A stretch of 32,000 nucleotides of DNA from Kiritimatiellia bacterium (GTDB taxonomy: Bacteria > Verrucomicrobiota > Kiritimatiellia > RFP12 > UBA1067). A program made the position numbers and the translations under genes. Of this stretch, positions 17,625 through 31,726 are shown one piece after another. Position 1 is the first letter of the stretch; each line of letters opens with the position of its first letter. The stretch is from the NCBI GenBank assembly GCA_035353175.1, contig DAOPZC010000022.1, positions 29,730-61,729 on the forward strand, in the 5' to 3' direction. A model generated the notes under the pieces. The model ran no database searches. It was not told the origin of the DNA and saw only the letters and a list, made by a program, of their open reading frames with translations.

Positions 17625-17747
17625 CCCCCCAACCCTTTCGGACTACTTGCCTCGGCTGGCTCATAATCAGGTTGCGGCGACAATCGTTGGTGTTTGGGTT
17701 GCAACTTGGACGCTCTGGAAAATCCTATAGCCTTATACGAGGTGTAC

Positions 17748-19151: not shown

Positions 19152-20954
19152 CTACAAGCGGCCAAGCATTCTATATTTCAGGCGACGGAGTTGCTGGATC
19201 CGTTTCTCAAGCAGCCAAGCCCGCCAGTCATCCTCCGGCACAAGTTCGTTGTAAGGGATGGCAGTCTCAAATGAACGGCAGTATGCCTCCCAGGCCTGCT
19301 GTGTGGCTTGAAAGGCCGCCGCGGCGGGAGGTATGTCGGATTTCTTTGCGGCCAGCAACGCGCCCAATTCATCGCACAGTCGCCGGTACTCTTCCCGAGT
19401 CTGGCGCGCATCGGACGGGATCGGCGTCAACATCTCTTCCCCAATGAGCGCCAGGTCAATCGCCAGATCCTGCCGCAGCGCGTTTTCTTGGCGGGCGCGA
19501 TCCGAGAAACTGTTCCGGTCGGAAAAGACCTCTTCGTTGGCGACCTGCAGCGCGATGAAGCGCACGCCTTGTTCATAGAGTTCTGGGTATCTACACCCAA
19601 CCAGACGCTTGCGCTCATAATAGTCGAGCCAACGGCGGATCTCACGCGGCGAATCGAAGTCGATACCCAGATCATCGCCGAAAAAGCCCAAGTCTCCATC
19701 TCGCCCCATGCCGGAGTTATCCTGCGCGTAAAGATAAGCCCGCCGCAGGTTCGCCAATAAACGATCGAGCCCGCCGCCGGATCGGACAAGGATACACTGG
19801 AAGATGTCCCACCGGAAAGCGGGGTCATGCGCGTAGTGCCAGGCGAGACTGATATGGTATCCTGGCTCCCCGTCGCCCCAGAGGTCGAGGTCGACCCCTT
19901 CTTCCTCCAGATATGCCCTCCGATCGCCCCAGCCCGAAGGGGTGTTGGCGCTGAGAAACAGGACCAGTTGAATCTGGGGCTCCTGACTGAGCCGCAAGTT
20001 GGGATTGGCCATTTTGGCGCTCTGATAGATTTCGTTCGCAAGCGCGGGATCCGCCGTGAAAAAACTCCGCGGATTGAAGACCAGCAGGTCCAGTATCAGT
20101 TCGAGGCTCTGACGCTCTCCCTGTCGTGCCCGCGGCTCCAATCGCCGGATCTCCCGTTTCTGCTCTTCGATCAAACTCCGCGCATGGGCTGGCGCCGCCC
20201 AGCACTGGACGGTTCGATAAGGATACTCATTTCTTATCAAGCATCGGCTGGGGTATTTATCACGATTATTAATATCGAATTGATCAGCCATGCAGGCCGG
20301 TCGGAGCACCCCATTCACAGATCGGTTGACCTCCTCGTAAGGCATATCCGGCAACAGCCGTGTCATCAGGCTGACCAAGCAACGGTGGGCCGTTTCTGGC
20401 TCTCGGGCCGGATAATCACGATGCGGGTCTTCCTCGGAGGTGTTCTGTTCCGCGTCATGCGTGCTCGACGGGGCCTCCAGTTGACGCTTGCAGACTCGCT
20501 CAATAAACGCGACAACGTCTTCGCACTGTTGCTCCTGAATCTCGATGACGCTGAGTGCGGATCCCGACCCCGTGCAGTCATTCCACTCTAAAGCACGACG
20601 CTCGGCATGACGCTTCGCGGCTCCATACGCCTCTTCGGCCAACAGTTTAACCTCGTCGGGATACGGCGCCGCGCACGCGCGCAAACGCTGCCGTCGCAAC
20701 GGCTCCTGGACGCGGATGGCCTCGGCAGAGAGGCGACGCAATTCGGCGAAGCAGAGGTCCCGCCCGGAGTCCGCCGAGCTGTCGTCCGCCCTTTCGTCGT
20801 CCTCACTGCCCGAGCCGAAGCCCACCTCCCCGTCCTCATGCCTGAAAAAACACGACTGAACTGAAGCGGCCAGGCCCGCAACCAAGAGCGCGCCGACAAG
20901 CGCCCACAGCGCGAGCCGTCGCAATTTCCGCAGCGTTTGACTTTTGTCGTTCAT
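19152..20954 (-). CDS. signal-anchored/secreted hypothetical protein with a possible C-terminal DUF1311 (LprI-like) region
   Basis: Starting from the ATG at 20954, the protein begins 'MNDKSQTLRKLRRLALWALVGALLVAGLAASVQSCF', which is an N-terminal TM or signal segment. The C-terminal 'FQATQQAWEAYCRSFE...WRAWLLEKRIQQLRRL' resembles the DUF1311 QxaWxxyrdxxC...R...L pattern. The ORF-track extension to 21242 is translated REP sequence. Confidence 0.6.
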   Translation of the reverse strand: MNDKSQTLRKLRRLALWALVGALLVAGLAASVQSCFFRHEDGEVGFGSGSEDDERADDSSADSGRDLCFAELRRLSAEAIRVQEPLRRQRLRACAAPYPDEVKLLAEEAYGAAKRHAERRALEWNDCTGSGSALSVIEIQEQQCEDVVAFIERVCKRQLEAPSSTHDAEQNTSEEDPHRDYPAREPETAHRCLVSLMTRLLPDMPYEEVNRSVNGVLRPACMADQFDINNRDKYPSRCLIRNEYPYRTVQCWAAPAHARSLIEEQKREIRRLEPRARQGERQSLELILDLLVFNPRSFFTADPALANEIYQSAKMANPNLRLSQEPQIQLVLFLSANTPSGWGDRRAYLEEEGVDLDLWGDGEPGYHISLAWHYAHDPAFRWDIFQCILVRSGGGLDRLLANLRRAYLYAQDNSGMGRDGDLGFFGDDLGIDFDSPREIRRWLDYYERKRLVGCRYPELYEQGVRFIALQVANEEVFSDRNSFSDRARQENALRQDLAIDLALIGEEMLTPIPSDARQTREEYRRLCDELGALLAAKKSDIPPAAAAFQATQQAWEAYCRSFETAIPYNELVPEDDWRAWLLEKRIQQLRRLKYRMLGRL

Positions 20955-20995
20955 GTTTTGTTTCTTTCTCCGCTCACAATCCGTGCGACCTTTCG

Positions 20996-21104
20996 CAGCG
21001 GGTTCGTAGCCCCCCTGTACTTTTCTGATCTCCCCGTTTGCCTCAGCGGGTTCGTAGCCCCCGCTGTACGTGTGCCCCGGTACAGCAGGCGCTACGAGCC
21101 TGCT
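20996..21104. repeat. REP cluster: two forward REP copies plus one inverted copy (a REPIN-like doublet)
   Basis: A slightly decayed copy, CAGCGGGTTCGTAGCCCCCCTGTAC, lies at 20996-21020. A second copy, CAGCGGGTTCGTAGCCCCCGCTGTAC, lies at 21044-21069. An inverted partner, GGTACAGCAGGCGCTACGAGCCTGCT, lies at 21079-21104. Each unit is itself a hairpin (AGCGGG/CCCGCT and CAGCAGGC/GCCTGCTG). Confidence 0.8.
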
Positions 21105-21733
21105 ATTTCTTCGAATTCCGGCCTCAGCCACTCCACGCAGCGTGTCCACGGCCAGTCGGCCCAGTTCTTCGTCAAGCCGGCCTTGACCGGATTCTCGCAG
21201 ATGTACCGCGCGACGCCGATCACCTTGGCCTCGTCGCGGCACCAGTGGTCGAAGCCCTCGCGTGCCCAGAAGGCGCCCGTGCGTCCCAGTATCCGGTTGG
21301 CTTGCCGCGCCACGTAGCTCTTATACTGACCGAGGTCCGCCAACAACTCTCCGCTACGGCCCTCACCGCTCCGCATCAGCAGGTGCATGTGGTTCGAAAG
21401 CACCGTGACGGCGTACACCTGCCAGCCGCGCGGCTTCTCAAGCCATTCGAGATTCGCCAACACGATTTCAGGCACGCCGGGTTGCGTGAGCCAGTCGCGC
21501 CGGTTGTCCACGGCATGCAGGCAGCGTTCCACGTGCAGGAATTGCCGCCGCGCCAGTTCCGTCAACCGCTCCTCATTCGCATCGGCTTTCGCGAGGGCGG
21601 CCCGTTCCGACTCCAGGTCGGCGACGACAGCTTTCGGAATCGTGCCCGCGAGCCGCAGCGTCACAAAGTAGGCATGGTCTGCCACCAACCAGTGCGGCAG
21701 GTTGCCGCGTGTGAAGCGCAAGGTCTCGACCAT
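21092..21733 (-). CDS. REP-associated tyrosine transposase (RAYT; IS200/IS605 TnpA-like Y1 HUH enzyme)
   Basis: The protein contains 'NLPHWLVADHAYFVTLRL', the HUH motif 'LSNHMHLLM', and the catalytic-Tyr region 'ARYICENPVKAGL'. It is flanked on both sides by REP doublets. The start ATG at 21733 was chosen because the upstream ORF extension is REP sequence. Confidence 0.85.
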   Translation of the reverse strand: MVETLRFTRGNLPHWLVADHAYFVTLRLAGTIPKAVVADLESERAALAKADANEERLTELARRQFLHVERCLHAVDNRRDWLTQPGVPEIVLANLEWLEKPRGWQVYAVTVLSNHMHLLMRSGEGRSGELLADLGQYKSYVARQANRILGRTGAFWAREGFDHWCRDEAKVIGVARYICENPVKAGLTKNWADWPWTRCVEWLRPEFEEIAGS

Positions 21734-21917: not shown

Positions 21918-24900
21918 TCATTGAGCGCTATCAACAACAAACGGATTGAACTTCAGGGCGCCGTGGCAGTGAGGGCAGGGGGCGAGGAGGCGTGGGTTCT
22001 CGTACGCGGAGTCGGGGAGCCAGAGGCCCTTGCGGATTTCCTGAGCGCCTTCCATTCCGATCTCCACAACCGGTTCTGGCGGCTCGAACAGCTTGCCGCA
22101 ATGGAGACAGCGGCAGGTGAGATGATCGTCCCACCGGTCGGGAGTGGCCACTGAGGTACCTTCGGCCTGTCTGCGGACTTCACCGAACATCCATAAGCGG
22201 GCAGGCGTGATGATCGACGGCCGGGAGGGCTGGAAGTTGACCGGCGTGAGAAAATGCATCTGTCCGTCGCCGGTGCGGCAGATTATGCGTTTGACCGACG
22301 GCGAGAACACAACGAATCGAATGTCAAACCCGGCATGGTAAACCGCCAGACAGGCACCGGTTTCCAGGTCCCAGACCCGCAGGGTCTGGTCGTTACTGCC
22401 CGAGACGGCACGCCGCCCGTCGGGGCTCACACTCACGCTCTCGACCCAGTCCCTGTGGCCTTCGAGGGTGCGCAGGCAGGCACCGGTTTCCAGGTCCCAG
22501 ACCCGCAGGGTCTTGTCATTACTGCCCGAGACGGCGCGCCGCCCGTCGGGGTTCACACTCACGCAATTGACTTGGTCCGCGTGGACTTCGAGGGTGCGCA
22601 GGCAGGCGTCGGTTTCCAGGTCCCAAACCCGCAGGGTCTTGTCAGTACTGCCCGAGACGGCACGCCGCCCGTCGGGGCTCACGCTCACGCACTTGACGTA
22701 GTCCGCGTGGCCTTCGAGCGTGCGCAGGCAGGCGCCGGTTTCCAGACTCCAGACCCGCAGGGTCTTGTCCCAACTGGCCGAGACGGCGCGCCGCCCGTCG
22801 GGGCTCACGCTCACGCTTACGTACCCGAACGAGCCCGCGTGGACTTCGAGGGTGCGCAGGCAGGCGCCGGTTTCCAGGTCCCAGACCCGCAGGGTATTGT
22901 CGAAACTGCTCGAGACGGCGAGCCGCCCGTCGGGACTCACGCTCAGTCTATTGACGAAGGATCTGTGGCCTTTGAGGGTACGCAGGCAGGTGCAGGTCTC
23001 CAGGTCCCAGACCCGCAGGGTCTTGTCGTAACCGCCCGAGACGGCGCGCCGCCCATCGGGGCTGACGCTCACGCAATTGACTTGGTCCGCGTGGACTTCG
23101 AGGGTGCGCAGGCAGGCGCCGGTTTCCAGGTCCCAGACCCGCAGGGTCTTGTCCCAACTGGCCGAGACGGCGCGCCGCCCGTCGGGGCTCACGCTCACGC
23201 TTACGTACCCGAACGAGCCCGCGTGGACTTCGAGGGTGCGCAGGCAGGCGCCGGTTTCCAGGTCCCAGACCCGCAGGGTCTTGTCATTACTGCCCGAGAC
23301 GGCGCGCCGCCCGTCGGGGTTCACACTCACGCAATTGACTTGGTCCGCGTTGCCTTCGAGGGTGCGCAGGCATTGGCCGGTTTCCAGGTCCCAGACCCGC
23401 AGGGTCCTGTCGGCACTGGCCGAGACGGCGCGCCGCCCGTCGGGGCTCACGCTCACGCTATTGACGAAGATTCTGTGGCCTTCGAGCGTGCGCAGGCAGG
23501 CGCCGGTTTCCAGGTCCCAGACCCGTAGGGTATTGTCGCGACGGGAAAGAGTTCCCGCTCCCGAGACGGCGCGCCGCCCGTCGGGGCTCACGCTCACGCT
23601 CCAGACCCATTCCGCGTGGCCTTCGAGGGTAGCTAGGCATTGGCCGGTTTCCAGGTCCCAGACCCGCAGGGTCTTGTCGAAACTGGCCGAGACCGCGCGC
23701 CGCCCGTCGGGGCTCACGCTCACGCTATTGACCGTGTGCGCGTGACCTTCGAGCGTGCGCAGACAGGCGCCGGTTTCCAGGTCCCAGACCCGCAGGGTCT
23801 TGTCGGCACTGCCCGAGACGGCGCGCCGCCCGTCGGGGCTCACGCTCACGCTATTGACCCAGTCCCTGTGGCCTTCGAGGGTGCGCAGGCAGGCGCCGGT
23901 TTCCAGGTCCCAGACCCGCAGGGTCTTGTCATTACTGCCCGAGACGGCGCGCCGCCCGTCGGGGTTCACACTCACGCAATTGACTTGGTCCGCGTTGCCT
24001 TCGAGGGTGCGCAGGCATTGCGGTCTCAAGGGGCGGGCGGGAGGCTGGGGCGTGCGCTTCAACCATGGCAACTTGCGTCCTGGAAGGAGGATTTCGGCTT
24101 GAACGGCCACCGGACCAGTATCAGCCCAGTTGAACGCCAAGGGTAGGACATCCTTGGGGAACTGCGAGAGAGGCGCCAAGTGTCCCGACACGAAGTTCGC
24201 GAAGTGCCGGAGGCGGGCGGCGCGTAGGGAGGATTCTTCAGGAATGGCGTGTTGGGCTTCGTCCCGCAGCGCGCCGGGCAGCGGCGGATAGGGCGGTTCG
24301 GGCCGCGTTTCGCCGCGTTCCTTGGCGAACCACCAGTCGCAGCGAACGAACGCGTAGTCCCGCAGCGCCTGGTTGAAGGCGAACATGGCCGCGTCGCGTT
24401 TGGCCAGCCGCTCGTTCTCCTCACGGAACTCGGGCAGTGCCGCCAGAGCGGCGTTGTAATCAGTCATCAGTTCATAGATCAAGCCGGATCGGGCTTTGGT
24501 CTCGACGCAGTCGAGATCGCATAGCACATCCACCAGCGGGTCCCATCGGTCGGCGCCAGGAGTCAACTCGGCGACCCGGTGCAGATGAAACGGCAGTTCG
24601 CTGGTCTTGCGGCTATTGGCGGGATCGGACCGCTCCGGGGCGCGGGCTGACTGACCGTCCTCTACCGATGGCGGCAGTAACCACGGTTGCCCGTCAAACC
24701 AGCCGGCCATGGTCTCGTGCAGGGGCAGGCGGGAGACGGCGTCCGGCAGGCAATAGGTCTGCACGGCTTCGCCGAAACTGCGATGGTAGAACCCGAACAG
24801 GGACGCGCCCTGGTTGCGGCGCTCGGTAAGGTAGAAGGCGATGTCGCCGTGCAGCCGCACCCAGATGGCGACCGGCAGGGCCTTGATGCGCTCGGCTTCG

Positions 24901-27056
24901 GGTTTGACCCGTTCGGTGGGCGAGCGTGCAATGACGTCGGCCATGACCACGGGATCGGCGCCAAGCACAGCGATCACTTCGTCCTCCGCCAGTCCGTGCC
25001 GGGCCGCGGCGAGATAGCCCAGCGCGCGCTTGACGATGACCTCGCCGTGCTCCCCGCCCCGGGACAGCCGTTGCAGGACGGTGGCGAGCAGGTCGGGCAG
25101 ACCGGACGGCAGCGGGTGGGGCTTGTGCCATGCCGGCCAGCGGGCGGCTTCCTCGGCCGCCACGCGCAGCCAGAGCGCGTTGCCCTCTACCGCGAAGGCG
25201 TCGAGGATAGGCCGGCGCTGGGCGTCGTGATCGAGCGTCCGCCCCGCCGCGTCCAGCCAGCGGTCGAGCAGCGCCGCGCCGTCAGCCGGCGCGAGCGGGT
25301 CGAGCCGGACGGTTTGCGCGCCGGGCGCGAGGCGGGCGAGGTTGCGGGAGATAGTGGCGCGTGGGTCGGCAAGTACAGCAGGACCTATGGGACTGCTGTT
25401 CTCGTGTGGCAGCGGGTTCATAGCCCCCGCTGTAAGTGCTCCGGCTTCATCGGGACCTTCAGAACCGCTGCTCTGATTATTAGCCAGCGGGCTCGTAGCG
25501 CCCGCTGTACGCGGTTCCGCCGCCGAAACGACGATGCGGACGTAAGGCGGGAGTTTCTGCGGTAGCCACGACAGAGAGGCGGCGAGGTTGGCATCGCGAA
25601 ACTGGTCGAGGGCGTCGAGGAAGAGCCGGATGGGACGTTCCGCCGTCGCCCGGCCCAGCGCCTCGTGAAAGGCATTGGTCAGAGGATTGATCTCGGTCGG
25701 GATTTCGCGTTCGTCGGGTTCCTTCTCCTTGGGTTCGCGGGACGGTCCGGAGTCAACAGGCGGGACGCCTGTTCCAATTTGTTCGACCTGGCGGGGGTAT
25801 AGTGCCCGAATCCGGGCGACCAGGTCGCGGAGCAGCTCGATCAGGTCGGACGATCCGGGAGTGACGCCGATGAAACGGGAGAGGACCTGGGGATGGTGAT
25901 CGGTTGTTTGCGTTTCGCCCTTCGCTTCGCCCCGGCATTCCGCAATCGCCTGGGCCATGAGGGCGGATTTGCCGGAGCCGGCCGGACCGACGATGGCGAG
26001 CGGCTGGTCCGGGCCGGAAGCGAGATATTCGCGAATCCGGCGCAGCGGTTCCGCGCGGCCGATGAAGCCGGCGCGGCGTTCTTCGGCGAAGTCGCGGTGC
26101 GCGGCTTCCTCCAATTCTTCCGGCGGGACTTCCTCGAGACCGGCGATCTGGGTCTCGAGGACTTGGCACAGCCGCCCGTAAACTTCCGTGGCGAACGCGG
26201 CGAGATCTGCATCGTTGAATGCGCCCTCGTCGCGCCACGGCACCTCGTAGGGATGGACGTTGGCAGGACCGAGGTGGTCATCCAGATCGGCGCACAGGAC
26301 ATCCAGCCGGCGGCGGGAGTCGGTATCCGGCGTGTCGTCGGGCATACAATCGGTAAACGCCGGATGCGGCGTTGACGGAGGATTGACGATCCGTCGGCGA
26401 AAAGCATGCACATGTTGGCGCGCATCCGTCCCGGGCAGGGCCAGCGCGCCGTGGATGATCTCCTGGTGCGTGGCGGAGAGGCCGATGGCCGTACAGCAGG
26501 CGTTGCTGGCTTGCCGATCTTCTCGCGCGGCGGTCCCGCAGGTCACGCTGCACTGCGCCAACGCGGCCAGCAGCGGCATTTCGACCTCTGCCTGCCAGAC
26601 TGCGAAATCCTCGAACCGCCCCGTTCGCGGTTGCAGCACATACTCCGCCGGCACGGCGTTATCATCCCGCCGATACCAAGCATCCAGAATCTCTGCGTTC
26701 TTTACGCTCTTTGTGGTTAATTCCCTCTCAAGCCCCTCGAATACCTCCGTCGGTATCGTCTCCGGCAGCGGTCGCCATCCATACCGGTCGCCCAGCAACA
26801 CGAGGAAATTCGGCTTGATCCGCCCCTCCTGACACCGCTTCAACTCGCGCAGACAGATCCGCATCGTGCGGTTGTCCTTGCCCGCCTCCTCGGGCACGCC
26901 CCATCGCAAGTCAATCGCCTGAAACCGCAGTCCCTTTGACAGGCAAAGCCGCTGCAGCTTAGGAAACACCTCTCGCTGCAACAGGTCACGCTCTGCCTTG
27001 AAGTCTGAGAAGGTCGAACTGACAAAAAGGCGGATAGTTCGATGAGCGGCGGACAT
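21918..27056 (-). CDS. STAND NTPase paralogue: DUF4062-like domain, NACHT module, helical region, 13 near-identical plus 1 degenerate WD40 repeats, C-terminal CxxC...CxxC zinc-ribbon-like tail
   Basis: The N-terminus 'IRLFVSSTFSDFKAERDLLQREVFPKL...FQAIDLRWGV...NFLVLLGDRYGWRPLP' is about 60% identical by eye to the 10847 gene. Walker A 'GPAGSGKS' lies at 25965-25988 and Walker B is 'IRLFLDALDQF'. The repeats follow 'LRTLEGHxxxVxSVSVSPDGRRAVSGSxDKTLRVWDLETGAC'. The tail reads 'CRCLHCGK...CPHCHG'. The start ATG at 27056 is preceded by a G-rich SD. Confidence 0.9.
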   Translation of the reverse strand: MSAAHRTIRLFVSSTFSDFKAERDLLQREVFPKLQRLCLSKGLRFQAIDLRWGVPEEAGKDNRTMRICLRELKRCQEGRIKPNFLVLLGDRYGWRPLPETIPTEVFEGLERELTTKSVKNAEILDAWYRRDDNAVPAEYVLQPRTGRFEDFAVWQAEVEMPLLAALAQCSVTCGTAAREDRQASNACCTAIGLSATHQEIIHGALALPGTDARQHVHAFRRRIVNPPSTPHPAFTDCMPDDTPDTDSRRRLDVLCADLDDHLGPANVHPYEVPWRDEGAFNDADLAAFATEVYGRLCQVLETQIAGLEEVPPEELEEAAHRDFAEERRAGFIGRAEPLRRIREYLASGPDQPLAIVGPAGSGKSALMAQAIAECRGEAKGETQTTDHHPQVLSRFIGVTPGSSDLIELLRDLVARIRALYPRQVEQIGTGVPPVDSGPSREPKEKEPDEREIPTEINPLTNAFHEALGRATAERPIRLFLDALDQFRDANLAASLSWLPQKLPPYVRIVVSAAEPRTAGATSPLANNQSSGSEGPDEAGALTAGAMNPLPHENSSPIGPAVLADPRATISRNLARLAPGAQTVRLDPLAPADGAALLDRWLDAAGRTLDHDAQRRPILDAFAVEGNALWLRVAAEEAARWPAWHKPHPLPSGLPDLLATVLQRLSRGGEHGEVIVKRALGYLAAARHGLAEDEVIAVLGADPVVMADVIARSPTERVKPEAERIKALPVAIWVRLHGDIAFYLTERRNQGASLFGFYHRSFGEAVQTYCLPDAVSRLPLHETMAGWFDGQPWLLPPSVEDGQSARAPERSDPANSRKTSELPFHLHRVAELTPGADRWDPLVDVLCDLDCVETKARSGLIYELMTDYNAALAALPEFREENERLAKRDAAMFAFNQALRDYAFVRCDWWFAKERGETRPEPPYPPLPGALRDEAQHAIPEESSLRAARLRHFANFVSGHLAPLSQFPKDVLPLAFNWADTGPVAVQAEILLPGRKLPWLKRTPQPPARPLRPQCLRTLEGNADQVNCVSVNPDGRRAVSGSNDKTLRVWDLETGACLRTLEGHRDWVNSVSVSPDGRRAVSGSADKTLRVWDLETGACLRTLEGHAHTVNSVSVSPDGRRAVSASFDKTLRVWDLETGQCLATLEGHAEWVWSVSVSPDGRRAVSGAGTLSRRDNTLRVWDLETGACLRTLEGHRIFVNSVSVSPDGRRAVSASADRTLRVWDLETGQCLRTLEGNADQVNCVSVNPDGRRAVSGSNDKTLRVWDLETGACLRTLEVHAGSFGYVSVSVSPDGRRAVSASWDKTLRVWDLETGACLRTLEVHADQVNCVSVSPDGRRAVSGGYDKTLRVWDLETCTCLRTLKGHRSFVNRLSVSPDGRLAVSSSFDNTLRVWDLETGACLRTLEVHAGSFGYVSVSVSPDGRRAVSASWDKTLRVWSLETGACLRTLEGHADYVKCVSVSPDGRRAVSGSTDKTLRVWDLETDACLRTLEVHADQVNCVSVNPDGRRAVSGSNDKTLRVWDLETGACLRTLEGHRDWVESVSVSPDGRRAVSGSNDQTLRVWDLETGACLAVYHAGFDIRFVVFSPSVKRIICRTGDGQMHFLTPVNFQPSRPSIITPARLWMFGEVRRQAEGTSVATPDRWDDHLTCRCLHCGKLFEPPEPVVEIGMEGAQEIRKGLWLPDSAYENPRLLAPCPHCHGALKFNPFVVDSAQ
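22350..24014 (-). repeat. tandem array of 13 coding repeats (126, 132 or 141 nt each) encoding WD40 blades, with long exact internal duplications
   Basis: The total length is 1665 nt (555 codons): 10 units of 42 aa, 2 of 44 aa and 1 of 47 aa. An exact repeat of ~144 nt occurs at 22751-22894 and 23135-23278. A further exact repeat of ~135 nt occurs at about 23237-23372 and 23881-24020. Confidence 0.9.
25410..25510. repeat. two direct REP copies embedded in-frame inside the NACHT-WD40 CDS
   Basis: CAGCGGGTTCATAGCCCCCGCTGTAA lies at 25410-25435 and CAGCGGGCTCGTAGCGCCCGCTGTAC at 25485-25510. They belong to the same family as the units flanking the RAYT gene. On the coding strand they translate as 'TAGAMNPL' and 'TAGATSPL'. 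Confidence 0.8.
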
Positions 27057-27057
27057 A

Positions 27058-27210
27058 CTACACCCCCCCTCGATTCTCGCGGTCGAACCAGACCTGGAAC
27101 CCGGCGGCGGCGTCCAGCCGGTTGGCGTTGAGATGCGTCCAAGCCTGGGCAAGTTCGTTTTGCGTGTTGGCGTCCATGCTGTTGCTCGTCAGGTGCGGGT
27201 TGATGAACAT
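27058..27210 (-). CDS. candidate 50-aa small ORF directly upstream of the NACHT-WD40 gene (not in the ORF track)
   Basis: My hand translation is 'MFINPHLTSNSMDANTQNELAQAWTHLNANRLDAAAGFQVWFDRENRGGV*'. About 43 of 50 codons end in G or C, matching the local coding bias. An AGGA lies 8 nt upstream of the ATG. The TAG stop is separated from the NACHT ATG by 1 nt. Confidence 0.4.
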   Translation of the reverse strand: MFINPHLTSNSMDANTQNELAQAWTHLNANRLDAAAGFQVWFDRENRGGV

Positions 27211-27292
27211 GGGGCGATATCCTAGATGTCATGCGTTCTGTGCTTGGGCTTATTCAGCTTTACGTAATCAGTTTGTTTCAAAAAGGCGCGCG

Positions 27293-29113
27293 TCACAGGT
27301 TAAGGGAGGTTTTCTTGCAGATCTTTTGTTTGACCGCGTGGAGGAAGTCGGGGATCTTGCGTACGGTCTGGCGATCATACTCCTTGATATCGTCGGGGAG
27401 TTCGTTCCAGGGCACGATGCACGCACTTATTTTTCGCTTCTTGTCGCTGATTTCGCCATAGACCCACCCGTCGAGTAAGCGTTCCGCGTTCCACCGGTTG
27501 TGCTCCATCTCAGCCAGCAATTCGACATCGGGATCTTCAAGTTCATTGACGGCTCCCCGTGGATCTTTGATGTCTGCACGTTCGAGGCCGATCGCGCGCA
27601 ACTTCATGTCGATGTGGTCGGCCTGCTGGCGGTTCGAGTCCTTGAAATACTCGAACAAGTTCTTCCAATCCTGAACGGACGGTTCATCCTCAGGTTTTTT
27701 CTTGTCTCTCTTTAACGCTGCGATTTTGTTGATTTGATAACTCGTGTGGATGGCCTGAGCGAGGGTCTCGTTCAGCTTGTTCTCGAGCAACTCGTCGCTG
27801 CAACAGTCTTCAAGCATGCCGAAGGCGTGCAACGCAGAGTCCTTGCCGGCCGTGGCGGTCTGAAAGACGGAGGCAAAGCCGGTCTTGCTGGACATGCGGA
27901 CGAACATCGGCACCTGCAAGTGCTCGAGCTTGGCTTTCATGAGCAGGGCGACTTCAAGTCCCAGCGCGTCGCGGTCGAAGCAGGCCGCAACGCTGACGAG
28001 GGTTGACGTATCGGCGCACCAGGTCTCAAGCAGCTGCCGGGCTCGAAGCGACTCCATTTCGAGCTCGTGGAACTCGATCTCGCATGTTTTCTCGAAGTTC
28101 GGATAACGGAACAGCAAGGCCTGCTTGCGCCGCTCGGCGTGCTGGTCGATGACGGAAATCTTGAGCGGTTTCCCGTTGGCGAAGTGCCCGAGTTGAGCTG
28201 CGCGCAGCGCGACGGTCCTGCCCATGCGGCCGAAGCCGAGGATCACGAGGTGGGCCTGTCGGGGCTCGTTCTTCTTGATTCCCCCGCGATCCAGGGGCGT
28301 CAGATTCGGGTTCTGCAGAAGCTTCCGCGCGGCGGTGTCAAACAGGTCGAAGAAATGGATTTCGCAGCGCGGGTCATCTCTGAACGCCTGGGATGCCTGC
28401 AACGAGGCGCGTGTGTCGATATCGCCCAGGTGGATGAAACACTTGACGGGGTCCTGAAGGAGACTTCGACCGCCTCTCTTCAGAATGAGTGCGTGGGCTT
28501 CGTTGATGATGGCCATGTTCGTGCTGTCCTCTTCGGAAAGCGCGATGACGTGACTGGCCCGGTCAACACGTGCCTTGCTCAGGGTTGCGGGTTTCAGCAG
28601 GTCTCCCGTCACCACGGTGACTCCTTTTTCCCGGCAGGCCTCGGCGCCAGCGTCATTCGCGGAGGGGGAAACAACGACCACCCGTTGTCGCCGGGGCTTG
28701 GAATGGGCCGTTTCTTTGCAGGCTTGCGGGTTGCGGTAGCATTGGACCAGCTGGAGGGTTTTGGAGCCGAGGCCACAGATGACGACGTGCCGCGGCCAGG
28801 GGATTTGAAGGCGGATCTGCCGCATCTCATCGCGGAAGAACCGGAGAAAGGTCAACACCGCTGTCATTCCAAACAGCAGGAAGGCCATCCAGCGTGCGCA
28901 TTCCAAGGTTAAGGGCATGTCATCCTGGGACACCATGTGCATGAGAAGCAGCTGGATGCTGTGGTAAAAAGCGTTCAGCCATGCTCGGGCTCCTGGCGTG
29001 GAACCGTCAGCGAACCAATAGCCGAAGGTTCCTAAAACAATCGTGATCGGTGCCCCGATGAAAACCACCCACCACTGCCATCTCGCCTTCCCGTTTCCTG
29101 ATTGGCTACTCAT
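27293..29113 (-). CDS. membrane protein: MthK-like 2TM pore module with a degenerate selectivity filter, two Rossmann/RCK (TrkA-N-like) domains, and a C-terminal RyR domain
   Basis: TM1 is 'WWVVFIGAPITIVLGTFGYWF'. The pore-helix-like stretch 'AFYHSIQLLLMHMVSQDDMP' occupies the position of 'xxTxTTVGYGD'. TM2 is 'ARWMAFLLFGMTAVLTF'. It is followed immediately by 'RHVVICGLGSKTLQLV' (compare MthK 'RHVVICGW...') and a second Rossmann motif 'HLVILGFGRMGRTVA'. The C-terminal 'ELLAEMEHNRWNAERLLDGWVYGE...KISACIVPWNELPDDIKEYDRQTV' matches the RyR pattern. The ATG at 29113 overlaps the upstream gene's stop by 8 nt. Confidence 0.75.
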   Translation of the reverse strand: MSSQSGNGKARWQWWVVFIGAPITIVLGTFGYWFADGSTPGARAWLNAFYHSIQLLLMHMVSQDDMPLTLECARWMAFLLFGMTAVLTFLRFFRDEMRQIRLQIPWPRHVVICGLGSKTLQLVQCYRNPQACKETAHSKPRRQRVVVVSPSANDAGAEACREKGVTVVTGDLLKPATLSKARVDRASHVIALSEEDSTNMAIINEAHALILKRGGRSLLQDPVKCFIHLGDIDTRASLQASQAFRDDPRCEIHFFDLFDTAARKLLQNPNLTPLDRGGIKKNEPRQAHLVILGFGRMGRTVALRAAQLGHFANGKPLKISVIDQHAERRKQALLFRYPNFEKTCEIEFHELEMESLRARQLLETWCADTSTLVSVAACFDRDALGLEVALLMKAKLEHLQVPMFVRMSSKTGFASVFQTATAGKDSALHAFGMLEDCCSDELLENKLNETLAQAIHTSYQINKIAALKRDKKKPEDEPSVQDWKNLFEYFKDSNRQQADHIDMKLRAIGLERADIKDPRGAVNELEDPDVELLAEMEHNRWNAERLLDGWVYGEISDKKRKISACIVPWNELPDDIKEYDRQTVRKIPDFLHAVKQKICKKTSLNL

Positions 29114-30023
29114 AGTCGTGTTCCTCTGCTCGTTCGCTGTTGGAGCCGGACCGTAAGACGTCGGACGGCTGAATGAAGGTGACAAATTCCCGCAGCGAGG
29201 CCGGATCATCCGGCAGGATTATACCGCGGCCGTCATTCGGGCCTGCATTGGCAACCAGGGCGGCGAAACGCTTGGGGGCGAGTTCGTCACCATCTGTCGC
29301 AGCGACGCGTGCGCCCAGCGCCCAGGCCAGCGCCAACTCCTGCGCGGAGACGACACCGCCACCGAGGCACAGAAGAGTGACTGCAGAGGGGGGAATGCCG
29401 CTGACGAACAAGTCGTTCCACATTTGAAGCGGCTCCAGAAGCGAGAAGTCGCTGCCGACGGTGCGGACGATGTGGGGGAAGTCGAACGAGGCCTCGGCAT
29501 GTGCGGGAAGGTAGCCGACCAGCTCTACGTGCGCTTTGCCAGACGCATTTGCGTGCGCGGCGCAACGCGCGGCCAGTCCACAAACCCCGGCGCCGGTGCC
29601 GCCGGTGATGAGGTAGCCTTTATACGTAGAGAGCGCGTCTTGGAGGGGCGCTTCGTACGCGGCCAGCCGGGTGCCGCTTTGCGCATCGGTGCTTCCCGCG
29701 AGGATGAGGACTTTATTGCCAGTTCGGAACGTGAACCGGCGTTCCAACGGCGCCCGCTTAAAACGTGCTCCGCGTTCTGATGTCAGGGCTTGCCGCGCCT
29801 TGATGAAGAGGTCGGAGGCCTGATCGAGCACAGGGGCAAAGGGGTGATTTGCGCCGAGAGAAGCTTTGACGCGATCGAGCGCACGACGGATATCTGTACC
29901 GGGATGGCGCGAGTTCTTGACGGCGAGGCAAAGCTCTTCAAAAGCGGCAATCTCACGCAAAAAGCGGCCGTGCTTCTCGGAGTCATCCGGAAAGGGTTGA
30001 GCATCGGTACTGATCATCTCCAA
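29106..30023 (-). CDS. SLOG-superfamily-like (LOG/DprA/TIGR00725-type Rossmannoid) protein with an N-terminal helical extension
   Basis: The two glycine-rich motifs typical of SLOG domains are present: 'YLITGGTGAGVCGLAARCA' and 'LLCLGGGVVSAQELALAWALGARV'. The start is either the TTG at 30023 (GGAG 5 nt upstream) or the ATG at 30017. The gene overlaps the downstream gene by 8 nt. Confidence 0.5.
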   Translation of the reverse strand: MEMISTDAQPFPDDSEKHGRFLREIAAFEELCLAVKNSRHPGTDIRRALDRVKASLGANHPFAPVLDQASDLFIKARQALTSERGARFKRAPLERRFTFRTGNKVLILAGSTDAQSGTRLAAYEAPLQDALSTYKGYLITGGTGAGVCGLAARCAAHANASGKAHVELVGYLPAHAEASFDFPHIVRTVGSDFSLLEPLQMWNDLFVSGIPPSAVTLLCLGGGVVSAQELALAWALGARVAATDGDELAPKRFAALVANAGPNDGRGIILPDDPASLREFVTFIQPSDVLRSGSNSERAEEHDYE

Positions 30024-30198: not shown

Positions 30199-30981
30199 TC
30201 AAACCGGGCCCACCCTCAAACGCGCGGCCGGATCCTGACGGTAGTACTGCCTGAACTCCTCGTACAGGGCAAGGTGTTCGCGCTGGAGTTCAACCGGGCG
30301 CTCGAAGAAGAGCTCCGTGACCACGGCGAAAAACTCCGCAGGTTTTGTGGTGCCGTAGGCCGAGATCAACGACGGCGTGCCCGCCGCGACATCCACTTGC
30401 AGGCGCTCGTATTCCGAAGCCAGCACCTGGGCCCAGTCTCTGTACAGGGATATGTTGTCAAGGACAGGCGAGCCGTTCATGGCGTCGTCTAAGAGGTCAA
30501 GCTGGTGTGCGAACTCGTGGAAGACCACGTTCGAGCCGTCGCCGGGCTGCTGCGCACCGGCGAGCGCGTCGGGCCAGGAGAGGGCGACCGCGCCGCCGCT
30601 GGAGGAGAGCCCCGCGACGGGAAGGTGCGTGACCGATACGATGCCCGACAGTCCTTGTTCCTCCTGTTCAAACCCGAAACTCTCCGGATATATGAGAATG
30701 CTGACCAACTTCTCATAATAATCGTGCCGGAGGTTGAGCAGCAGCAGGCATGCCTGGGCGGCAATCGTGACCTTGATCTCATCGGTGACGGTCATGCCGT
30801 TACAGCCCTCGAAATGCTTCTCGCGGATGAACACCTTGATCAGGTCGTCCAAGTGCTTGCGTTCGTCCGGATGGAGGCATCGGCAACAGGCAACGTTCCG
30901 GTCAATAATCTGCGACCATTCTTCGGGGAAAGGCTGTTGGACAAGTTCGTGCCTGCGGTGATCACGGAACGGATGAAGCAT
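30199..30981 (-). CDS. mtfA: MtfA-like zinc metallopeptidase (peptidase family M90)
   Basis: The protein contains 'FPEEW...DEIKVTIAAQACLLLLN...YPESF', the zinc motif 'HEFAHQLD', and 'YGTTKPAEFFAVVTELFFERP'. The start ATG at 30981 was chosen because the ORF-track extension overlaps the upstream gene. Confidence 0.8.
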   Translation of the reverse strand: MLHPFRDHRRHELVQQPFPEEWSQIIDRNVACCRCLHPDERKHLDDLIKVFIREKHFEGCNGMTVTDEIKVTIAAQACLLLLNLRHDYYEKLVSILIYPESFGFEQEEQGLSGIVSVTHLPVAGLSSSGGAVALSWPDALAGAQQPGDGSNVVFHEFAHQLDLLDDAMNGSPVLDNISLYRDWAQVLASEYERLQVDVAAGTPSLISAYGTTKPAEFFAVVTELFFERPVELQREHLALYEEFRQYYRQDPAARLRVGPV

Positions 30982-30997
30982 GACGGCATCTCCTGGT

Positions 30998-31726
30998 CTA
31001 ATAACGAGCGAACACCGTCCGCAGGAGCTGAGTGGTGCGGGCGGCCGGATCTTTGCGGATCCTGATTTCCTCGTCGGCGAGAATGGTGAAAAGACCGTCA
31101 ATGGCTTTTTCCGTCACAAAATCGTCCAGAGACGGGGTCTGCGGTTTGGGTACCAAGGGGATTTGCGCGTAGCGATCCAGGAGCGACTTGTAGGCACGGG
31201 CGGCGCCGGACTGATCGGTATACGTGGCGATGATCGGCTTATACAGATCCCGCAAGCGGCCGCTGGTCTTTTCACGGAAATAATCGGTGGCGGCCGTTTC
31301 TTTGCCGGCAAGGATTGCCTTGGCGTCTGCGAAGGTCATTTGTCTGATGGCTCCTACGAACACGGGTGCGGCTTGGGTCGCGGCTTGTTCTGCGGCCACG
31401 TTCATTTTCTTTTCAAAATCCTCGACGAGGGAACTGAGCCCAACGGCGCGCATGGTTTTCCCCACCGTCTGGAGTTCCCGGGGAAGGGGAATGCGGATGC
31501 GCGCATTGTTGAGGTATCCGCCGGATTTTGAGGTTTGGGTGACGGTGTTCCGGGTGCCAACAGTCAGGGCTTCTTTGAGCCCAGCAACAATCGTCTCGAC
31601 GGAAAGAGGCCCTCCGGAAGAGCTCCCCAGAAACGTCTCAAGTTTGGTGATGTTCAGACTGCCGCAGCCGGCGAGGGCGGTGGAAAGACCCGCTGCGAGA
31701 AGGCCGGCATAAAGGTTTTTTTTCAT
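30998..31726 (-). CDS. DUF4197-family lipoprotein
   Basis: The signal peptide carries a lipobox, 'LSTALAGC'. The body 'VAGLKEALTVGTRNTVTQTSKSGGYLNNARIRIPLP...' matches my recollection of DUF4197. Confidence 0.65.
   Translation of the reverse strand: MKKNLYAGLLAAGLSTALAGCGSLNITKLETFLGSSSGGPLSVETIVAGLKEALTVGTRNTVTQTSKSGGYLNNARIRIPLPRELQTVGKTMRAVGLSSLVEDFEKKMNVAAEQAATQAAPVFVGAIRQMTFADAKAILAGKETAATDYFREKTSGRLRDLYKPIIATYTDQSGAARAYKSLLDRYAQIPLVPKPQTPSLDDFVTEKAIDGLFTILADEEIRIRKDPAARTTQLLRTVFARY

Follow-up and report, generated by a model that had tools for sequence, protein, structure and literature searches.

Organization of the Locus

In the window, that is, the whole stretch of 32,000 nucleotides analyzed, two adjacent genes on the minus strand encode a stand-alone SLOG protein (gene 1) and a channel-like membrane protein (gene 2), the features of which are listed in Table 1. 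The corresponding open reading frames extend over 29106..30023 and 27293..29209, and within the latter the gene 2 product begins from an ATG at 29113 with the N-terminus MSSQSGNGKARWQWW. As displayed by the junction ...GAC T ATG AGT AG C..., the gene 2 ATG and the gene 1 TAG stop have 8 nt in common (ATGAGTAG), so that the overlap reported in the preliminary description is borne out by both coordinates and sequence. A Shine-Dalgarno-like AGAGGAA is located upstream of the gene 2 start, and the SLOG protein is translationally coupled to gene 2. The NCBI model of gene 2 (P0012, 591 aa) starts 15 codons further in and thereby loses the conserved W12/W14 motif, W14 of which is kept in 79/106 homologues. 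Neither gene was covered by any PADLOC model. As previously described, the next gene, of NACHT-WD40 type, lies on the same strand and begins at 27056, after a gap of 236 nt.

This neighbouring gene matches the Pfam families DUF4062 (5.1e-9, residues 9-96), AAA_16 (4.3e-14), nSTAND1, NPHP3_N and WD40 (1.5e-151), and the glutamate motif CLxE[IL]xxC conserved in DUF4062 is present. DUF4062 has been described as a TIR-like NADase yielding ADP-ribose (bioRxiv 10.64898/2026.05.01.722283). The DUF4062 enzymes characterised to date work by NAD+ depletion and require no separate effector. The protein is probably both sensor and signal generator, and a counterpart occupies the same position at loci L001, L003, L008, L048 and L056. 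Moreover, a 23-kb part of the window contains a pair of DUF4062-NACHT genes together with three to four genes encoding RyR domains. The X-AAA-RyR architecture found here often neighbours gene 2 homologues (L007, L017, L028, L060), and RyR neighbours of the same size as this protein were detected with the RyR profile at L073, L074, L079 and L080.

Table 1. Coordinates of the genes and domains in the window, with the evidence for each.
Feature	Position	Strand	Evidence or remark
X-AAA ATPase-RyR protein, 918 aa	7382..10138	-	Pfam RyR 6.1e-24 (2 stretches), AAA 1.8e-5
Second DUF4062-NACHT-HTH_NWD1-beta-propeller gene, same island	10790..15310	+	Pfam DUF4062 3.6e-13, NACHT 7.1e-9, HTH_NWD1
DUF4062 + STAND NTPase (NACHT/NWD1-like) + ~13 WD40 repeats, 1712 aa	21918..27056	-	Pfam
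Gene 2, channel-like: 2TM-P-loop-like region + RCK1 + RCK2 + RyR	27293..29113	-	606 aa; Pfam, AF2 model
Gene 2 RyR Repeat12-like domain, 446-600	27314..27778	-	Pfam, profile, Foldseek
Gene 2 RCK2 / second Rossmann domain, 286-445	27779..28258	-	Pfam
Gene 2 RCK1 / TrkA_N, 108-270	28304..28792	-	Pfam
Gene 2 TM2, 68-92, then MthK-collinear linker	28838..28912	-	L70, E71, R74, W75 conserved
Gene 2 loop at selectivity-filter position, 56-67, LLMHMVSQDDMP	28913..28948	-	Alignment of homologues
Gene 2 short pore-helix-like helix, 42-55	28949..28990	-	Model and conservation
Gene 2 TM1, helix 9-35	29009..29089	-	DSSP; G28, G31 conserved
Gene 1, stand-alone SLOG, LSDAT_prok lineage	29106..30023	-	305 aa from TTG; database model P0001 = 303 aa
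Gene 1 SLOG Rossmannoid core, residues 104-292	29148..29714	-	Family alignment, strand/helix pattern of model
Gene 1 N-terminal three-helix region, residues 15-81	29781..29981	-	DSSP helices 15-36, 41-56, 63-81

The SLOG Protein

The core of gene 1 carries the glycine loop GGTGAGVCGL (141-150) and the string GGGVVSAQE (221-229). In the family alignment A1, G141, G142, T143, G146, G222, G223 and E229 are invariant, and in the wider alignment A3 only G136, G141, G142, T143 and G146 are still so. A profile built from close relatives finds proteins annotated as PF18171 LSDAT_prok with E-values of 1e-54 to 1e-81, and 29/44 family members match LSDAT_prok. Furthermore, the AF2 model (pLDDT 89.4) retrieves in Foldseek structures of the SLOG superfamily only, namely MoCo carrier, PpnN, LOG and TRPM2/4/5/3/8. 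On the evidence of profiles and predicted structure, gene 1 therefore belongs among the SLOG proteins, in the LSDAT_prok ("SLOG in TRPM") lineage, which agrees with the SLOG-type assignment proposed earlier and narrows it to the TRPM-related branch. The N-terminal helices (residues 15-81) are homologous to the last TPR-like helices before SLOG in large RelA_SpoT-TPR-SLOG-RyR relatives, as aligned with P0009-P0011, and a fused RyR domain occurs in 94/144 of the best SLOG-family representatives.

Of the Pfam families anticipated in the preliminary description, TrkA_N and RyR were recovered in gene 2; Ion_trans_2 gave no gene 2 match even at E<=10, and in the direct scan of gene 1 LDcluster4 (SLOG cluster 4) was sub-threshold (15.2 vs 26.3 bits). 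A direct match of gene 1 to AlaDh_PNT_C was judged spurious.

Membrane Region of the Channel-like Protein

The AF2 model of gene 2 (pLDDT 92.8, pTM 0.90) displays TM1, a short helix, a loop of 12-15 residues, TM2, two RCK/TrkA Rossmann domains and a two-repeat, R12-like RyR domain. This architecture is uniform across more than 140 database proteins and 159 genome matches. The observation of the gene pair is confirmed as real and well beyond chance. The MthK layout previously attributed to gene 2 is confidently predicted, with helix, short helix, loop and helix leading into the RCK domain and a numbering nearly identical to that of MthK. Within the short helix, Y50 is found in 104/106 homologues and Q54 in 91/106. 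The string 'LMHMVSQDD', described earlier as replacing the selectivity filter, is present at residues 57-65; the family consensus of this loop reads L-H-x-P-H-x-E..P-W, with no T-V-G-Y-G. Indeed, the K+ filter signature occurs in 0/106 homologues (one chance GLG), and the loop length of 12-15 residues is conserved among them.

Profile comparison of gene 2 with MthK gave 2.8e-11 over query positions 21-202. For profile A6, restricted to the TM region and beta1, residues 81-135 of MthK 3rbz were matched at query 73-124 (E 0.0057), MthK being the only PDB sequence matched at E<0.1. For the pore-helix/filter region, similarity to K+ channels or any PDB channel is undetectable by sequence. Taken together, profiles and model indicate that gene 2 encodes an inner-membrane protein of the MthK/GsuK/BK layout, with TM1, re-entrant helix, loop, TM2 and two RCKs per chain; the protein may conduct ions.

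RCK and RyR Domains

The string 'RHVVICG' (108-114), the second Rossmann domain and the C-terminal RyR domain are all found as first described. Pfam assigns TrkA_N (2.9e-13, 111-208) and Slo-like_RCK (1.2e-5), Sacchrp_dh_NADP in the second Rossmann domain (8.5e-5, 290-376), and RyR (1.4e-15, 530-597; 57.8 bits vs a cut-off of 27.4). The dinucleotide motif of RCK1 is degenerate (G114-L-G116-S-K-T119, S149), most homologues having GxGxxG and E/D. That of RCK2 is intact, the residues G293, G295 and G298 of G293-F-G295-R-M-G298, and D323, being counted in 106/106, 105/106, 104/106 and 101/106 homologues, respectively. The gene 2 profile matches TrkA at 1e-18. In Foldseek the model matches the TrkA ring (9e-8; the tandem-RCK ring aligns over ~420 columns), full-length MthK (2e-6), Slo1, GsuK and nucleotide-bound RyR3 R12 (~190 columns).

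The RyR domain has a divergent first repeat (H456, F/Y459, D499, H500) and a canonical second one (E537, H538, W541, D580). The gene 2 profile finds RyR1/2/3 at ~1e-25, and phage RyR proteins and PHROGs also match the domain. RyR domains of the PF02026 family bind 2'/3'cADPR, or cleave it, via H75, W78, H100 and D117 (PMC13232231). Gene 2 homologues retain the ligand residues H538, W541 and D580, with spacings of +3 and +42 as for H75/W78/D117, and the position of the phosphate-binding H100 of RyDEP is S/N/T. Accordingly, profiles and model define the C-terminus as a two-repeat RyR (R12-type), a predicted nucleotide-binding domain. The best reading of sequences and models is that gene 2 and its SLOG partner would constitute a membrane effector of STAND/TIR-like immune sensors, gated by a NAD-derived nucleotide and not selective for K+.

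The same residues could also suit a regulator, in which RyR and/or SLOG would sequester NAD-derived signals at the membrane, or degrade them, thus setting a threshold for, or switching off, the NADase-STAND sensors, with the two TM helices as a mere non-conducting anchor. The RyDEP catalytic dyad positions H75/D117 are conserved as H538/D580, and SLOG keeps an acidic residue in its PGGxGTxxE-like motif (LOG-like hydrolase), E229 being invariant in A1; the TM region is also without a detectable channel signature, and NAD+ depletion alone suffices for killing by DUF4062 proteins. However, an anchor would have no need of the TM1/short helix/loop/TM2/RCK geometry, the loop length, Y50, Q54, E71 and R74, which are conserved across phyla, and two RCKs per chain are a hallmark of gating rings. 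Phage RyR proteins tested mostly bind without cleaving (PMC13232231). Furthermore, RyR is found fused to several kinds of effector-like module (channel-like, RelA_SpoT, AAA), as would be anticipated for a domain that senses, and a regulatory role is considered improbable.

Genomic Context of Relatives

Among 80 loci with gene 2 relatives, 37 have further RyR, SLOG, DUF4062 or TIR genes, and DUF4062 or TIR is present at 18; the partner genes are on the same strand as the relative in 52 of 57 cases. Pfam confirmed DUF4062-NACHT-TPR/WD40 or TIR-STAND proteins among the neighbours. The link to defence is hence stronger than was apparent in the preliminary description, given the adjacent DUF4062 (TIR-like NADase) and the relatives repeatedly flanked by DUF4062 or TIR STAND genes. 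At the remaining 43 loci none of the partner genes scanned for (RyR, SLOG, DUF4062, TIR) was found. The pair recurs in other genomes: the stand-alone SLOG and channel occur together at L001, L082, L083/L084 and the P0022/P0132 contig, limited to one close subclade. Outside it, SLOG resides in RelA_SpoT-TPR-SLOG-RyR neighbour proteins, and three close homologues of gene 2 (L087-L089) have no SLOG or other recognisable adjoining partner, with housekeeping genes around. The order at L083 is SLOG, channel and TIR_2 protein, and L090 carries on one strand DUF4062-TPR, channel, NUDIX, RelA-SLOG-RyR and TIR-NB-ARC-TPR.

A cation channel or transport regulator with a housekeeping role, under NAD(H)/ATP control (Kch/MthK/TrkA-type), beside which the immune genes lie incidentally, would explain the RCK/TrkA_N domains and a layout shared with ordinary K+ channels and transporters. 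It would also accommodate the roughly half of loci without scanned partners, some with housekeeping neighbours, and the annotation of relatives in sources as 'NAD-binding protein' or 'Kch'. We nevertheless regard it as quite unlikely: the K+ filter is absent from every homologue, and the rare domains RyR, TIR, DUF4062 and LSDAT SLOG directly adjoin on the same strand at the 37 loci, in many phyla and archaea. Moreover, the phyletic distribution is patchy, with several paralogues per island, and the GC content departs from that of neighbouring genes (0.55-0.60 vs 0.64-0.69).

Regarding the signal, RelA_SpoT domains are present in many of the partner proteins, and an alarmone-type nucleotide is therefore conceivable. 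The effector logic would be retained, but the ligand would be a pyrophosphorylated nucleotide from RelA_SpoT-type partners and not ADP-ribose-like; in the window, where RelA_SpoT genes are absent, the pair would respond to a product of SLOG or to a generator located elsewhere. RelA_SpoT lies N-terminal to SLOG in 92/144 of the best gene 1 relatives; L033, L070, L013 and L057 have only RelA_SpoT-TPR-SLOG-RyR and channel, with flanks free of DUF4062 or TIR; and the structures that best match gene 1 include PpnN, a LOG-like enzyme of which a crystal structure with (p)ppGpp exists. Adenine nucleotides, common ligands of RCK domains (TrkA/KtrA), count in the same direction. On the other hand, DUF4062 or TIR genes without RelA_SpoT are present both in the window and at the loci most closely related to it (L001, L083), the ligands so far shown for RyR domains are ADPR-type and adenine, and RelA_SpoT is equally readable as a toxSAS-like effector under SLOG/RyR control. 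The NUDIX genes at L013 and L090 also fit ADPR chemistry, and an alarmone signal appears unlikely.

Proposed Mechanism and Comparison with Known Systems

Repeated adjacency to genes for NAD-cleaving immune sensors suggests that the pair most likely serves as membrane "executioner" in an anti-phage system not described so far. We give somewhat better than even credence to the SLOG and channel-like proteins being the effector that receives the signal at the membrane in an NLR-like, NAD-based immune system, and the interpretation first offered is supported overall. Counting against it are the pore-helix and loop region devoid of sequence similarity to PDB channels, the 43 loci lacking scanned partners and the three close homologues amid housekeeping genes, the missing PADLOC model, S/N/T in place of H100 of RyDEP, the degenerate RCK1 motif, the DUF4062 enzymes that need no separate effector, and the RelA_SpoT domains of partner proteins. 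During infection, a phage cue would be sensed through the WD40 repeats and the STAND protein would oligomerise, after which its TIR-like DUF4062 domain may cleave NAD+, releasing ADP-ribose or a product related to it. The nucleotide would bind in the H538/W541/D580 pocket of RyR and/or to the SLOG protein, itself docked on the ring at the cytoplasmic side, with RCK2 as a possible further dinucleotide site. The RCK ring of a tetramer could then pull the inner helices open, and the resulting non-K+-selective ion flux would collapse the membrane potential, with arrest of growth or abortive infection as the outcome. In this clade SLOG would have split off as a separate subunit, with RyR on the channel, and in most relatives SLOG is fused to RyR (RelA_SpoT-TPR-SLOG-RyR).

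MthK, GsuK and BK channels resemble gene 2 in TM1, pore helix, loop and TM2 followed at once by RCK, TM2-linker-beta1 being collinear with MthK; two RCK domains per chain are shared with GsuK, Slo1 and TrkA. Gene 2 differs from MthK/GsuK/BK in having no TVGYG in any homologue, no Ion_trans_2 profile match, an added C-terminal RyR, a separate SLOG subunit and an immune, not ion-homeostasis, gene context.

Thoeris systems likewise place a TIR-type NAD-processing protein beside an effector, one domain of which can read signals derived from ADPR. In type I (TIR + SIR2-SLOG ThsA) SLOG is the signal-reading domain of ThsA, and in type X (TIR + ion-channel ThsK) the effector is a membrane protein or ion channel. 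Some gene 2 homologue loci even contain canonical TIR_2/ThsB_TIR genes. In contrast to the small ThsB, the TIR-like domain at this locus is DUF4062 on a giant STAND-WD40 sensor, and the effector unites RCK and RyR domains with a K-channel-like pore and a SLOG acting in trans. The searched text and supplements of the Thoeris survey make no mention of RyR, TrkA, PF02026 or PF02254. The earlier statement that no experimentally described system of such composition was known holds for SLOG with an RCK-RyR channel in the literature searched; the general idea of TIR plus ion channel is not unprecedented, since type X Thoeris has been experimentally validated (10.64898/2025.12.03.692087).

TRPM2 shares with gene 1 a SLOG of the LSDAT lineage, its MHR1/2 binding ADPR (PMC13143021), and R12 of RyR1-3 is homologous to the gene 2 RyR repeat domain with conserved ligand residues; NUDIX genes at some related loci recall the NUDT9-H of TRPM2. 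Here, however, the pore module is 2TM K-channel-like and not that of a 6TM TRP channel or RyR, SLOG is a separate polypeptide, and the proteins are prokaryotic in an immune setting. The likeness is functional analogy with shared sensor domains, not orthology. Phage RyR proteins (RyDEP glycosidase, sponges) share PF02026, the two-repeat fold and the H/W/D ligand residues, but are small, soluble and anti-defence, whereas the gene 2 domain forms the C-terminal end of a membrane protein of the host and has S/N/T at the H100-equivalent position of RyDEP. Finally, Swarozyc and Evangelion, DUF4062 defence proteins, and bacterial NACHT/NLR-like proteins resemble the neighbouring gene in the DUF4062 glutamate motif, NACHT-like STAND and WD40. 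Swarozyc/Evangelion-type systems act by NAD+ depletion alone, and their papers mention no link to channel-like, RyR or SLOG genes. The layout of the neighbouring gene is NWD1/TEP1-like.

Organization of the gene pair

The SLOG protein (gene 1) and the channel-like protein (gene 2) are encoded by overlapping minus-strand open reading frames, and their coordinates, 8-nt overlap and distance of 236 nt from the NACHT-type gene coincide with those of the preliminary description. The junction of the two genes reads ATGAGTAG; 8 nt are common to the stop of gene 1 and the start of gene 2, just 5' of which a purine-rich ribosome-binding motif is located. Translational coupling is classically associated with such a start/stop overlap next to a ribosome-binding motif. 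For gene 2, the start that gives a product of 606 aa is preferred over the 591-aa NCBI model, since W12 and W14 are kept in homologues. The downstream STAND gene starts at 27056 on the same strand, and a terminator/promoter scan, which constitutes weak evidence, displayed no minus-strand terminator-like site in the 236-nt gap. Judged from the sequence, co-transcription of genes 1 and 2 with the STAND gene is possible.

Fold and family of the SLOG protein

In TRPM channels, the MHR1/2 region is an LSDAT SLOG, and ADPR binding there opens TRPM2 (PMC13143021). The previous assignment of gene 1 to SLOG was upheld by its fold and by the profile of its relatives, but not at the Pfam gathering threshold for gene 1 itself. 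In direct scans, no match to PF18171 LSDAT_prok was obtained at E ≤ 10, and LDcluster4 scored 15.2 bits, below the 26.3-bit cut-off. The single-sequence search gave 11 relatives, including one SLOG-RyR fusion and TPR fusions, while the core profile retrieved 41 proteins, many of which were already annotated as PF18171 LSDAT_prok (“SLOG in TRPM, prokaryote”); the E-values for the PF18171 proteins were 1e-54 to 1e-81. When family members were scanned one by one, 29 of 44 matched PF18171. Membership of gene 1 in LSDAT_prok is thus supported by transitive homology via its relatives, its own Pfam score being below threshold. The AF2 model (pLDDT 89.4) begins with a unit of three helices and continues as a Rossmannoid core. 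All 47 Foldseek matches against the PDB at E ≤ 0.001 belong to the SLOG superfamily, among them the MoCo carrier 2iz5, PpnN (a nucleosidase that binds (p)ppGpp), LOG, and TRPM2/3/4/5/8, which match by their N-terminal domains. An AlaDh_PNT_C dehydrogenase match from the Pfam/NCBIfam scan was spurious, as settled by the profile and fold searches. The glycine loop GGTGAGVCGL is located at 141-150 and a second motif, GGGVVSAQE, at 221-229. Residues G141, G142, T143, G146, G222, G223 and E229 are invariant in the first family alignment (A1); in the wider alignment (A3) G141, G142, T143 and G146 are still invariant and the other motif residues are at least 90% conserved. Profile and model place gene 1 among the SLOG proteins of the TRPM-related LSDAT_prok lineage, and it is a putative binder of a nucleotide or an ADPR-type ligand.

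An exhaustive search with the SLOG profile gave 1,013 representative clusters. The best 144 of these comprise 78 RelA_SpoT-(TPR)-SLOG-RyR, 16 SLOG-RyR and 14 RelA_SpoT-SLOG proteins together with 36 SLOG domains alone, and the RelA_SpoT-SLOG-RyR architectures were confirmed by Pfam. Stand-alone gene 1 is therefore a minority “split” form; in its family, fusion to RyR is usual. Proteins of the RelA_SpoT-TPR-SLOG-RyR type (approximately 820-870 aa) make up most of the 1,013 clusters and were also seen at six loci of gene-2 relatives (L006, L033, L050, L051, L057, L070); no description of this family was found in the literature searched.

Fold and pore region of the channel-like protein

The RCK, second Rossmann and RyR domains proposed for gene 2 were all recovered, with Pfam matches to TrkA_N (2.9e-13), Slo-like_RCK (1.2e-5) and RyR (PF02026, 57.8 bits against a cut-off of 27.4). 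In the AF2 model, for which 106 homologues served as input (pLDDT 92.8, pTM 0.90), helix 9-35, short helix 42-55, the 12-residue loop 56-67 and helix 68-92 (TM2) are predicted with pLDDT of about 87-95; after these come a linker helix, the two Rossmann/RCK domains and, at the C-terminus, a helical domain. Foldseek matched the model to the tandem-RCK TrkA ring, full-length MthK, Slo1, GsuK and human RyR3 Repeat12 with nucleotides. About 190 columns align to RyR3 R12, so that both repeats are covered. The family profile likewise matched RyR1-3 (about 1e-25), TrkA (1e-18), GsuK (1e-16) and MthK (2.8e-11, query 21-202). When a profile from TM1 through beta1 (A6) was compared with the whole PDB, only MthK was found at E < 0.1, the match being confined to TM2, linker and beta1. 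An MthK layout, with the RCK directly after TM2 and collinear with MthK 3rbz, is supported by both profile and model. Of the 2TM-P-loop arrangement claimed previously, the order of helix, short helix, loop, helix and RCK was reproduced in the predicted model, but channel-family matches were not: no match to Ion_trans_2 or any other ion-channel family was obtained at E ≤ 10 in Pfam, and the TM-only profile (A5) gave no relevant match and no channel among PDB sequences. Homology of the pore loop to K+ channels consequently cannot be claimed from sequence.

The reported replacement of the selectivity filter was found throughout the family, as all 106 homologues are devoid of a TVGYG-like signature and the window protein has MHMVSQ at this position. 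A canonical K+ channel was thus rejected, and K+ selectivity is very unlikely. Where the filter signature would stand, the homologues have a loop of conserved length after a conserved Y50-x3-Q54-L-[FL]-x-[LM]-[H/E/D] segment, and TM2 starts with the likewise conserved E71 and R74. The constancy of loop length, Y50/Q54, E71 and R74 argues that the region at the pore position is probably functional, not a mere anchor.

Candidate ligand sites

Phage PF02026 RyR proteins bind 2'/3'cADPR, and one hydrolyses it, via H75, W78, H100 and D117 (PMC13232231). Phage RyR families also match gene 2. Residues equivalent to H75, W78 and D117 of RyDEP, the phage RyR-domain glycosidase, are H538 (104/106 homologues), W541 (103/106) and D580 (98/106), with the same spacing of +3 and +42. 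At position 563, equivalent to the phosphate-contacting H100, the 106 homologues have S, N or T and never H. Instead of acting as an effector, the proteins may be threshold-setting sponges or hydrolases whose TM part serves only as an anchor; the retained RyDEP residues H538 and D580 speak for this account, and the conserved pore-position region speaks against a mere anchor. A further candidate site is provided by RCK2, in which GxGxxG is intact and accompanied by the ribose-binding Asp D323. The GxGxxG of RCK1 is intact in most homologues and degenerate in the window protein.

Genomic neighbourhood of the gene-2 relatives

The 159 matches to gene 2 span Verrucomicrobiota, Planctomycetota, Acidobacteriota, Myxococcota, Chloroflexota, Bacteroidota and several archaea. 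From these, 80 genome loci were fetched, none of them from Bacillus or Vibrio, and their neighbour genes were clustered and scanned with home-made domain profiles. At least one partner gene was present in 37 of the 80 loci, and the scan recognised none in the other 43. Among the close homologues examined in addition, the channel genes of L087-L089 are solitary, with no partner gene recognised. Gene 2 may be a housekeeping cation channel regulated by NAD(H)/ATP, an account favoured by the 43 loci and opposed by the strand bias of the partners: 52 of 57 lie on the channel-gene strand, many directly adjoining.

The partners comprise other RyR proteins (18 loci of 80), DUF4062 (14), RelA_SpoT-SLOG-RyR (7), TIR (5) and SLOG (4). 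DUF4062-NACHT-TPR/WD40 giants adjoin the channel gene in L001, L003, L008, L043, L048 and L056, L005 has a stand-alone DUF4062, and L012, L058 and L074 have TIR_2/ThsB_TIR proteins, all by Pfam. Genes of this TIR type are present in the homologue loci L083, L012, L074, L058, L050 and L090, whereas the window has a DUF4062-STAND gene and not a ThsB-type TIR. In L090, DUF4062-TPR, a CHAT protein, the channel, NUDIX, RelA_SpoT-SLOG-RyR and TIR-NB-ARC-TPR are encoded in this order on one strand. The ligand may also be an alarmone-type product of the RelA_SpoT partners instead of ADPR; the seven RelA_SpoT loci are relevant to this alternative, and the DUF4062 and TIR loci to the ADPR-type ligand.

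The pairing of SLOG and channel genes was confirmed at particular loci but not as a general rule. The pair recurs in L082-L084, with the order SLOG, channel and patatin in L082 and SLOG, channel and TIR_2 protein in L083, and is absent from L087-L089. A SLOG gene of the gene-1 family occurs in the flanks of 11 of the 80 loci, with the same stand-alone arrangement only in L001; a universal pair was therefore rejected.

Three different output modules carry a fused RyR domain, often with SLOG as well: RelA_SpoT, an AAA ATPase and the channel-like protein. Fusion to varied outputs is the behaviour of signal-sensor domains in CBASS, Thoeris and type III CRISPR. These fusions provide the strongest indirect argument for the mechanism proposed below, with which the use of RyR as a sponge in phages is in keeping.

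Several further neighbours were observed. X-AAA-RyR proteins (about 850-950 aa) adjoin gene-2 homologues in L007, L017, L028 and L060 (Pfam), RyR-profile neighbours of the same size occur in L073, L074, L079 and L080, and a database contig (P0021) carries a 916-aa RyR protein. NUDIX is a separate gene between the channel and RelA_SpoT-SLOG-RyR genes in L090 (9786-10202) and is fused at the N-terminus of the RelA_SpoT-SLOG-RyR protein in L013 (3805-6786). This set of NUDIX, SLOG and channel recalls the domains of TRPM2 (SLOG, pore and NUDT9-H). A neighbour family of about 230 or 630 aa recurs in 9 loci, such as L028 (12317-14200, minus strand), L032, L080, L038 (7076-7771) and L073 (2250-2960); Pfam gave nothing for it save a weak SLATT_3 match in the long form (E 0.0058).

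Proposed mechanism and relation to known systems

The downstream gene had been described as NACHT-WD40, of which the STAND and WD40 parts were found while an N-terminal DUF4062 domain (PF13271, 5.1e-9) had been missed. C-terminal to this domain are a NACHT/NWD1/NPHP3-type STAND NTPase and approximately 13 near-identical WD40 repeats. The glutamate of the CLxE[IL]xxC motif, invariant in 8/8 aligned DUF4062 domains, is a putative catalytic residue. A preprint of 2026 reports DUF4062 as a TIR-like NADase with a role in anti-phage defence, its products being ADP-ribose and nicotinamide (10.64898/2026.05.01.722283), and a second preprint deals with a DUF4062 defence family; neither mentions RyR, TrkA, SLOG or channels.

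With moderate confidence, genes 1 and 2 are read as a membrane effector of the DUF4062-STAND sensor that would be opened by an ADPR-type nucleotide. The analysis itself shows how the proteins are built, that the two genes are coupled, and that gene-2 relatives are recurrently linked to partner genes. During the first stage, the STAND sensor would be triggered and its DUF4062 domain would turn NAD+ into an ADPR-type nucleotide. During the second stage, the RyR domain and/or the SLOG subunit, possibly also RCK2, would sense this nucleotide. Subsequently, the RCK gating ring would open a non-selective pore. During the final stage, the membrane would depolarise and infection would be aborted. DUF4062-NACHT proteins, thought to act solely by NAD+ depletion, would thereby gain a second arm in membrane depolarisation.

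PADLOC defence models matched neither gene. A survey of TIR systems gives type X Thoeris as validated, with an “ion channel” effector and an unknown signal, together with SLOG-patatin and SLOG-4TM candidates; RyR and TrkA are not mentioned in the portion of the survey available (10.64898/2025.12.03.692087). A plasmid search with a type X TIR sequence for loci of ThsK, the type X ion-channel effector, yielded type II (TIR + Macro) loci only. Membrane effectors that respond to a nucleotide signal and are encoded beside a TIR-type enzyme are already known in concept. The earlier remark that no experimentally described system of this composition was known agrees with the sources searched, in which the composition was not found, and it appears to be new: a degenerate K-channel pore joined to tandem RCK and RyR R12 domains, a trans-acting LSDAT SLOG, and linkage to a DUF4062/TIR STAND gene.

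A broader joint reading is advanced only tentatively and is regarded as doubtful, namely that bacterial and archaeal cation channels gated by the ADP-ribose family, RyR as a general host receptor, and the ancestry of TRPM/RyR regulation belong together. A degenerate K-channel pore would here carry as receptors the LSDAT SLOG of TRPM2 and the R12 of the ryanodine receptor, later found on animal Ca2+/cation channels. RyR would be the general host receptor for TIR/DUF4062 NADase signals, whether on a channel, RelA_SpoT or an AAA ATPase, and phages would have taken a copy of it for use as a sponge or glycosidase. If so, the ADPR/cADPR regulation of TRPM and RyR channels would descend from prokaryotic immune effectors.

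To our knowledge, no host receptor with an RyR domain has been described for cADPR signals; under the mechanism proposed above, gene 2 would supply one, as the counterpart of the phage RyR proteins reported in 2026 to bind or cleave cADPR. The sensor modules of TRPM2 and RyR stand together on a prokaryotic channel-like system beside a predicted ADPR-producing enzyme. It would offer a small bacterial model for the gating of an ion pore by SLOG and RyR repeats, a question that is open for cADPR/RyR and partly solved for TRPM2. The module also links to two large uncharacterised families, RelA_SpoT-TPR-SLOG-RyR (about 1,000 representative clusters) and X-AAA-RyR.

Composition of the island

The island at 7.0-30.0 kb of the window additionally contains an X-AAA-RyR gene, a small RyR-like ORF and a second DUF4062-NACHT gene, so that the 23 kb hold two NADase-STAND sensor genes and three to four RyR-domain genes in total.

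Genes of the island and its flanks
Feature	Position	Strand	Remarks
Gene 1, SLOG protein, 305 aa	29106-30023	-
Gene 2, channel-like protein, 606 aa	27293-29113	-	ATG at 29113 taken; ORF 27293-29209
DUF4062-STAND-WD40 gene	21918-27056	-
X-AAA-RyR protein, 918 aa	7382-10138	-	unannotated N-terminal half, AAA ATPase, two RyR stretches
Small ORF, 109 aa, after the X-AAA-RyR gene	7090-7419	-	RyR profile match, no Pfam family
Second DUF4062-NACHT-HTH_NWD1-beta-propeller gene	10790-15310	+	divergent from the AAA-RyR gene
TPR protein, 617 aa, between the two STAND genes	15052-16905	+
ORF, 253 aa, between the two STAND genes	17694-18455	+	no Pfam match
ORF, 696 aa, between the two STAND genes	19152-21242	-	no Pfam match
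Peptidase_M90 gene flanking the module	30199-31101	-
ORF, 389 aa, with C-terminal nucleoside diphosphate kinase (NDK) domain	5639-6808	+	far longer than typical NDK

Peptidase_M90 is also found beside the 60%-identical homologue in L081 (3698-3985), where the channel, a weak-TIR protein and the M90 peptidase occur in this order and gene order differs from that of the window; it may be a shared insertion-site marker rather than a functional partner. The N-terminal extension of the 389-aa NDK ORF may be real or an artefact of ORF calling. The G+C content of the channel gene is 0.55-0.60 (27001-29000) versus 0.64-0.69 for the STAND gene (22001-27000), which is consistent with a mosaic island with parts from different sources. 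The WD40 region of the STAND gene (22347-24017) consists of 13 tandem copies of a 126-bp unit (82% matches) with a higher-order period of 384 bp, a pattern suggesting that the repeats of this presumed sensor part have recently expanded or turned over.
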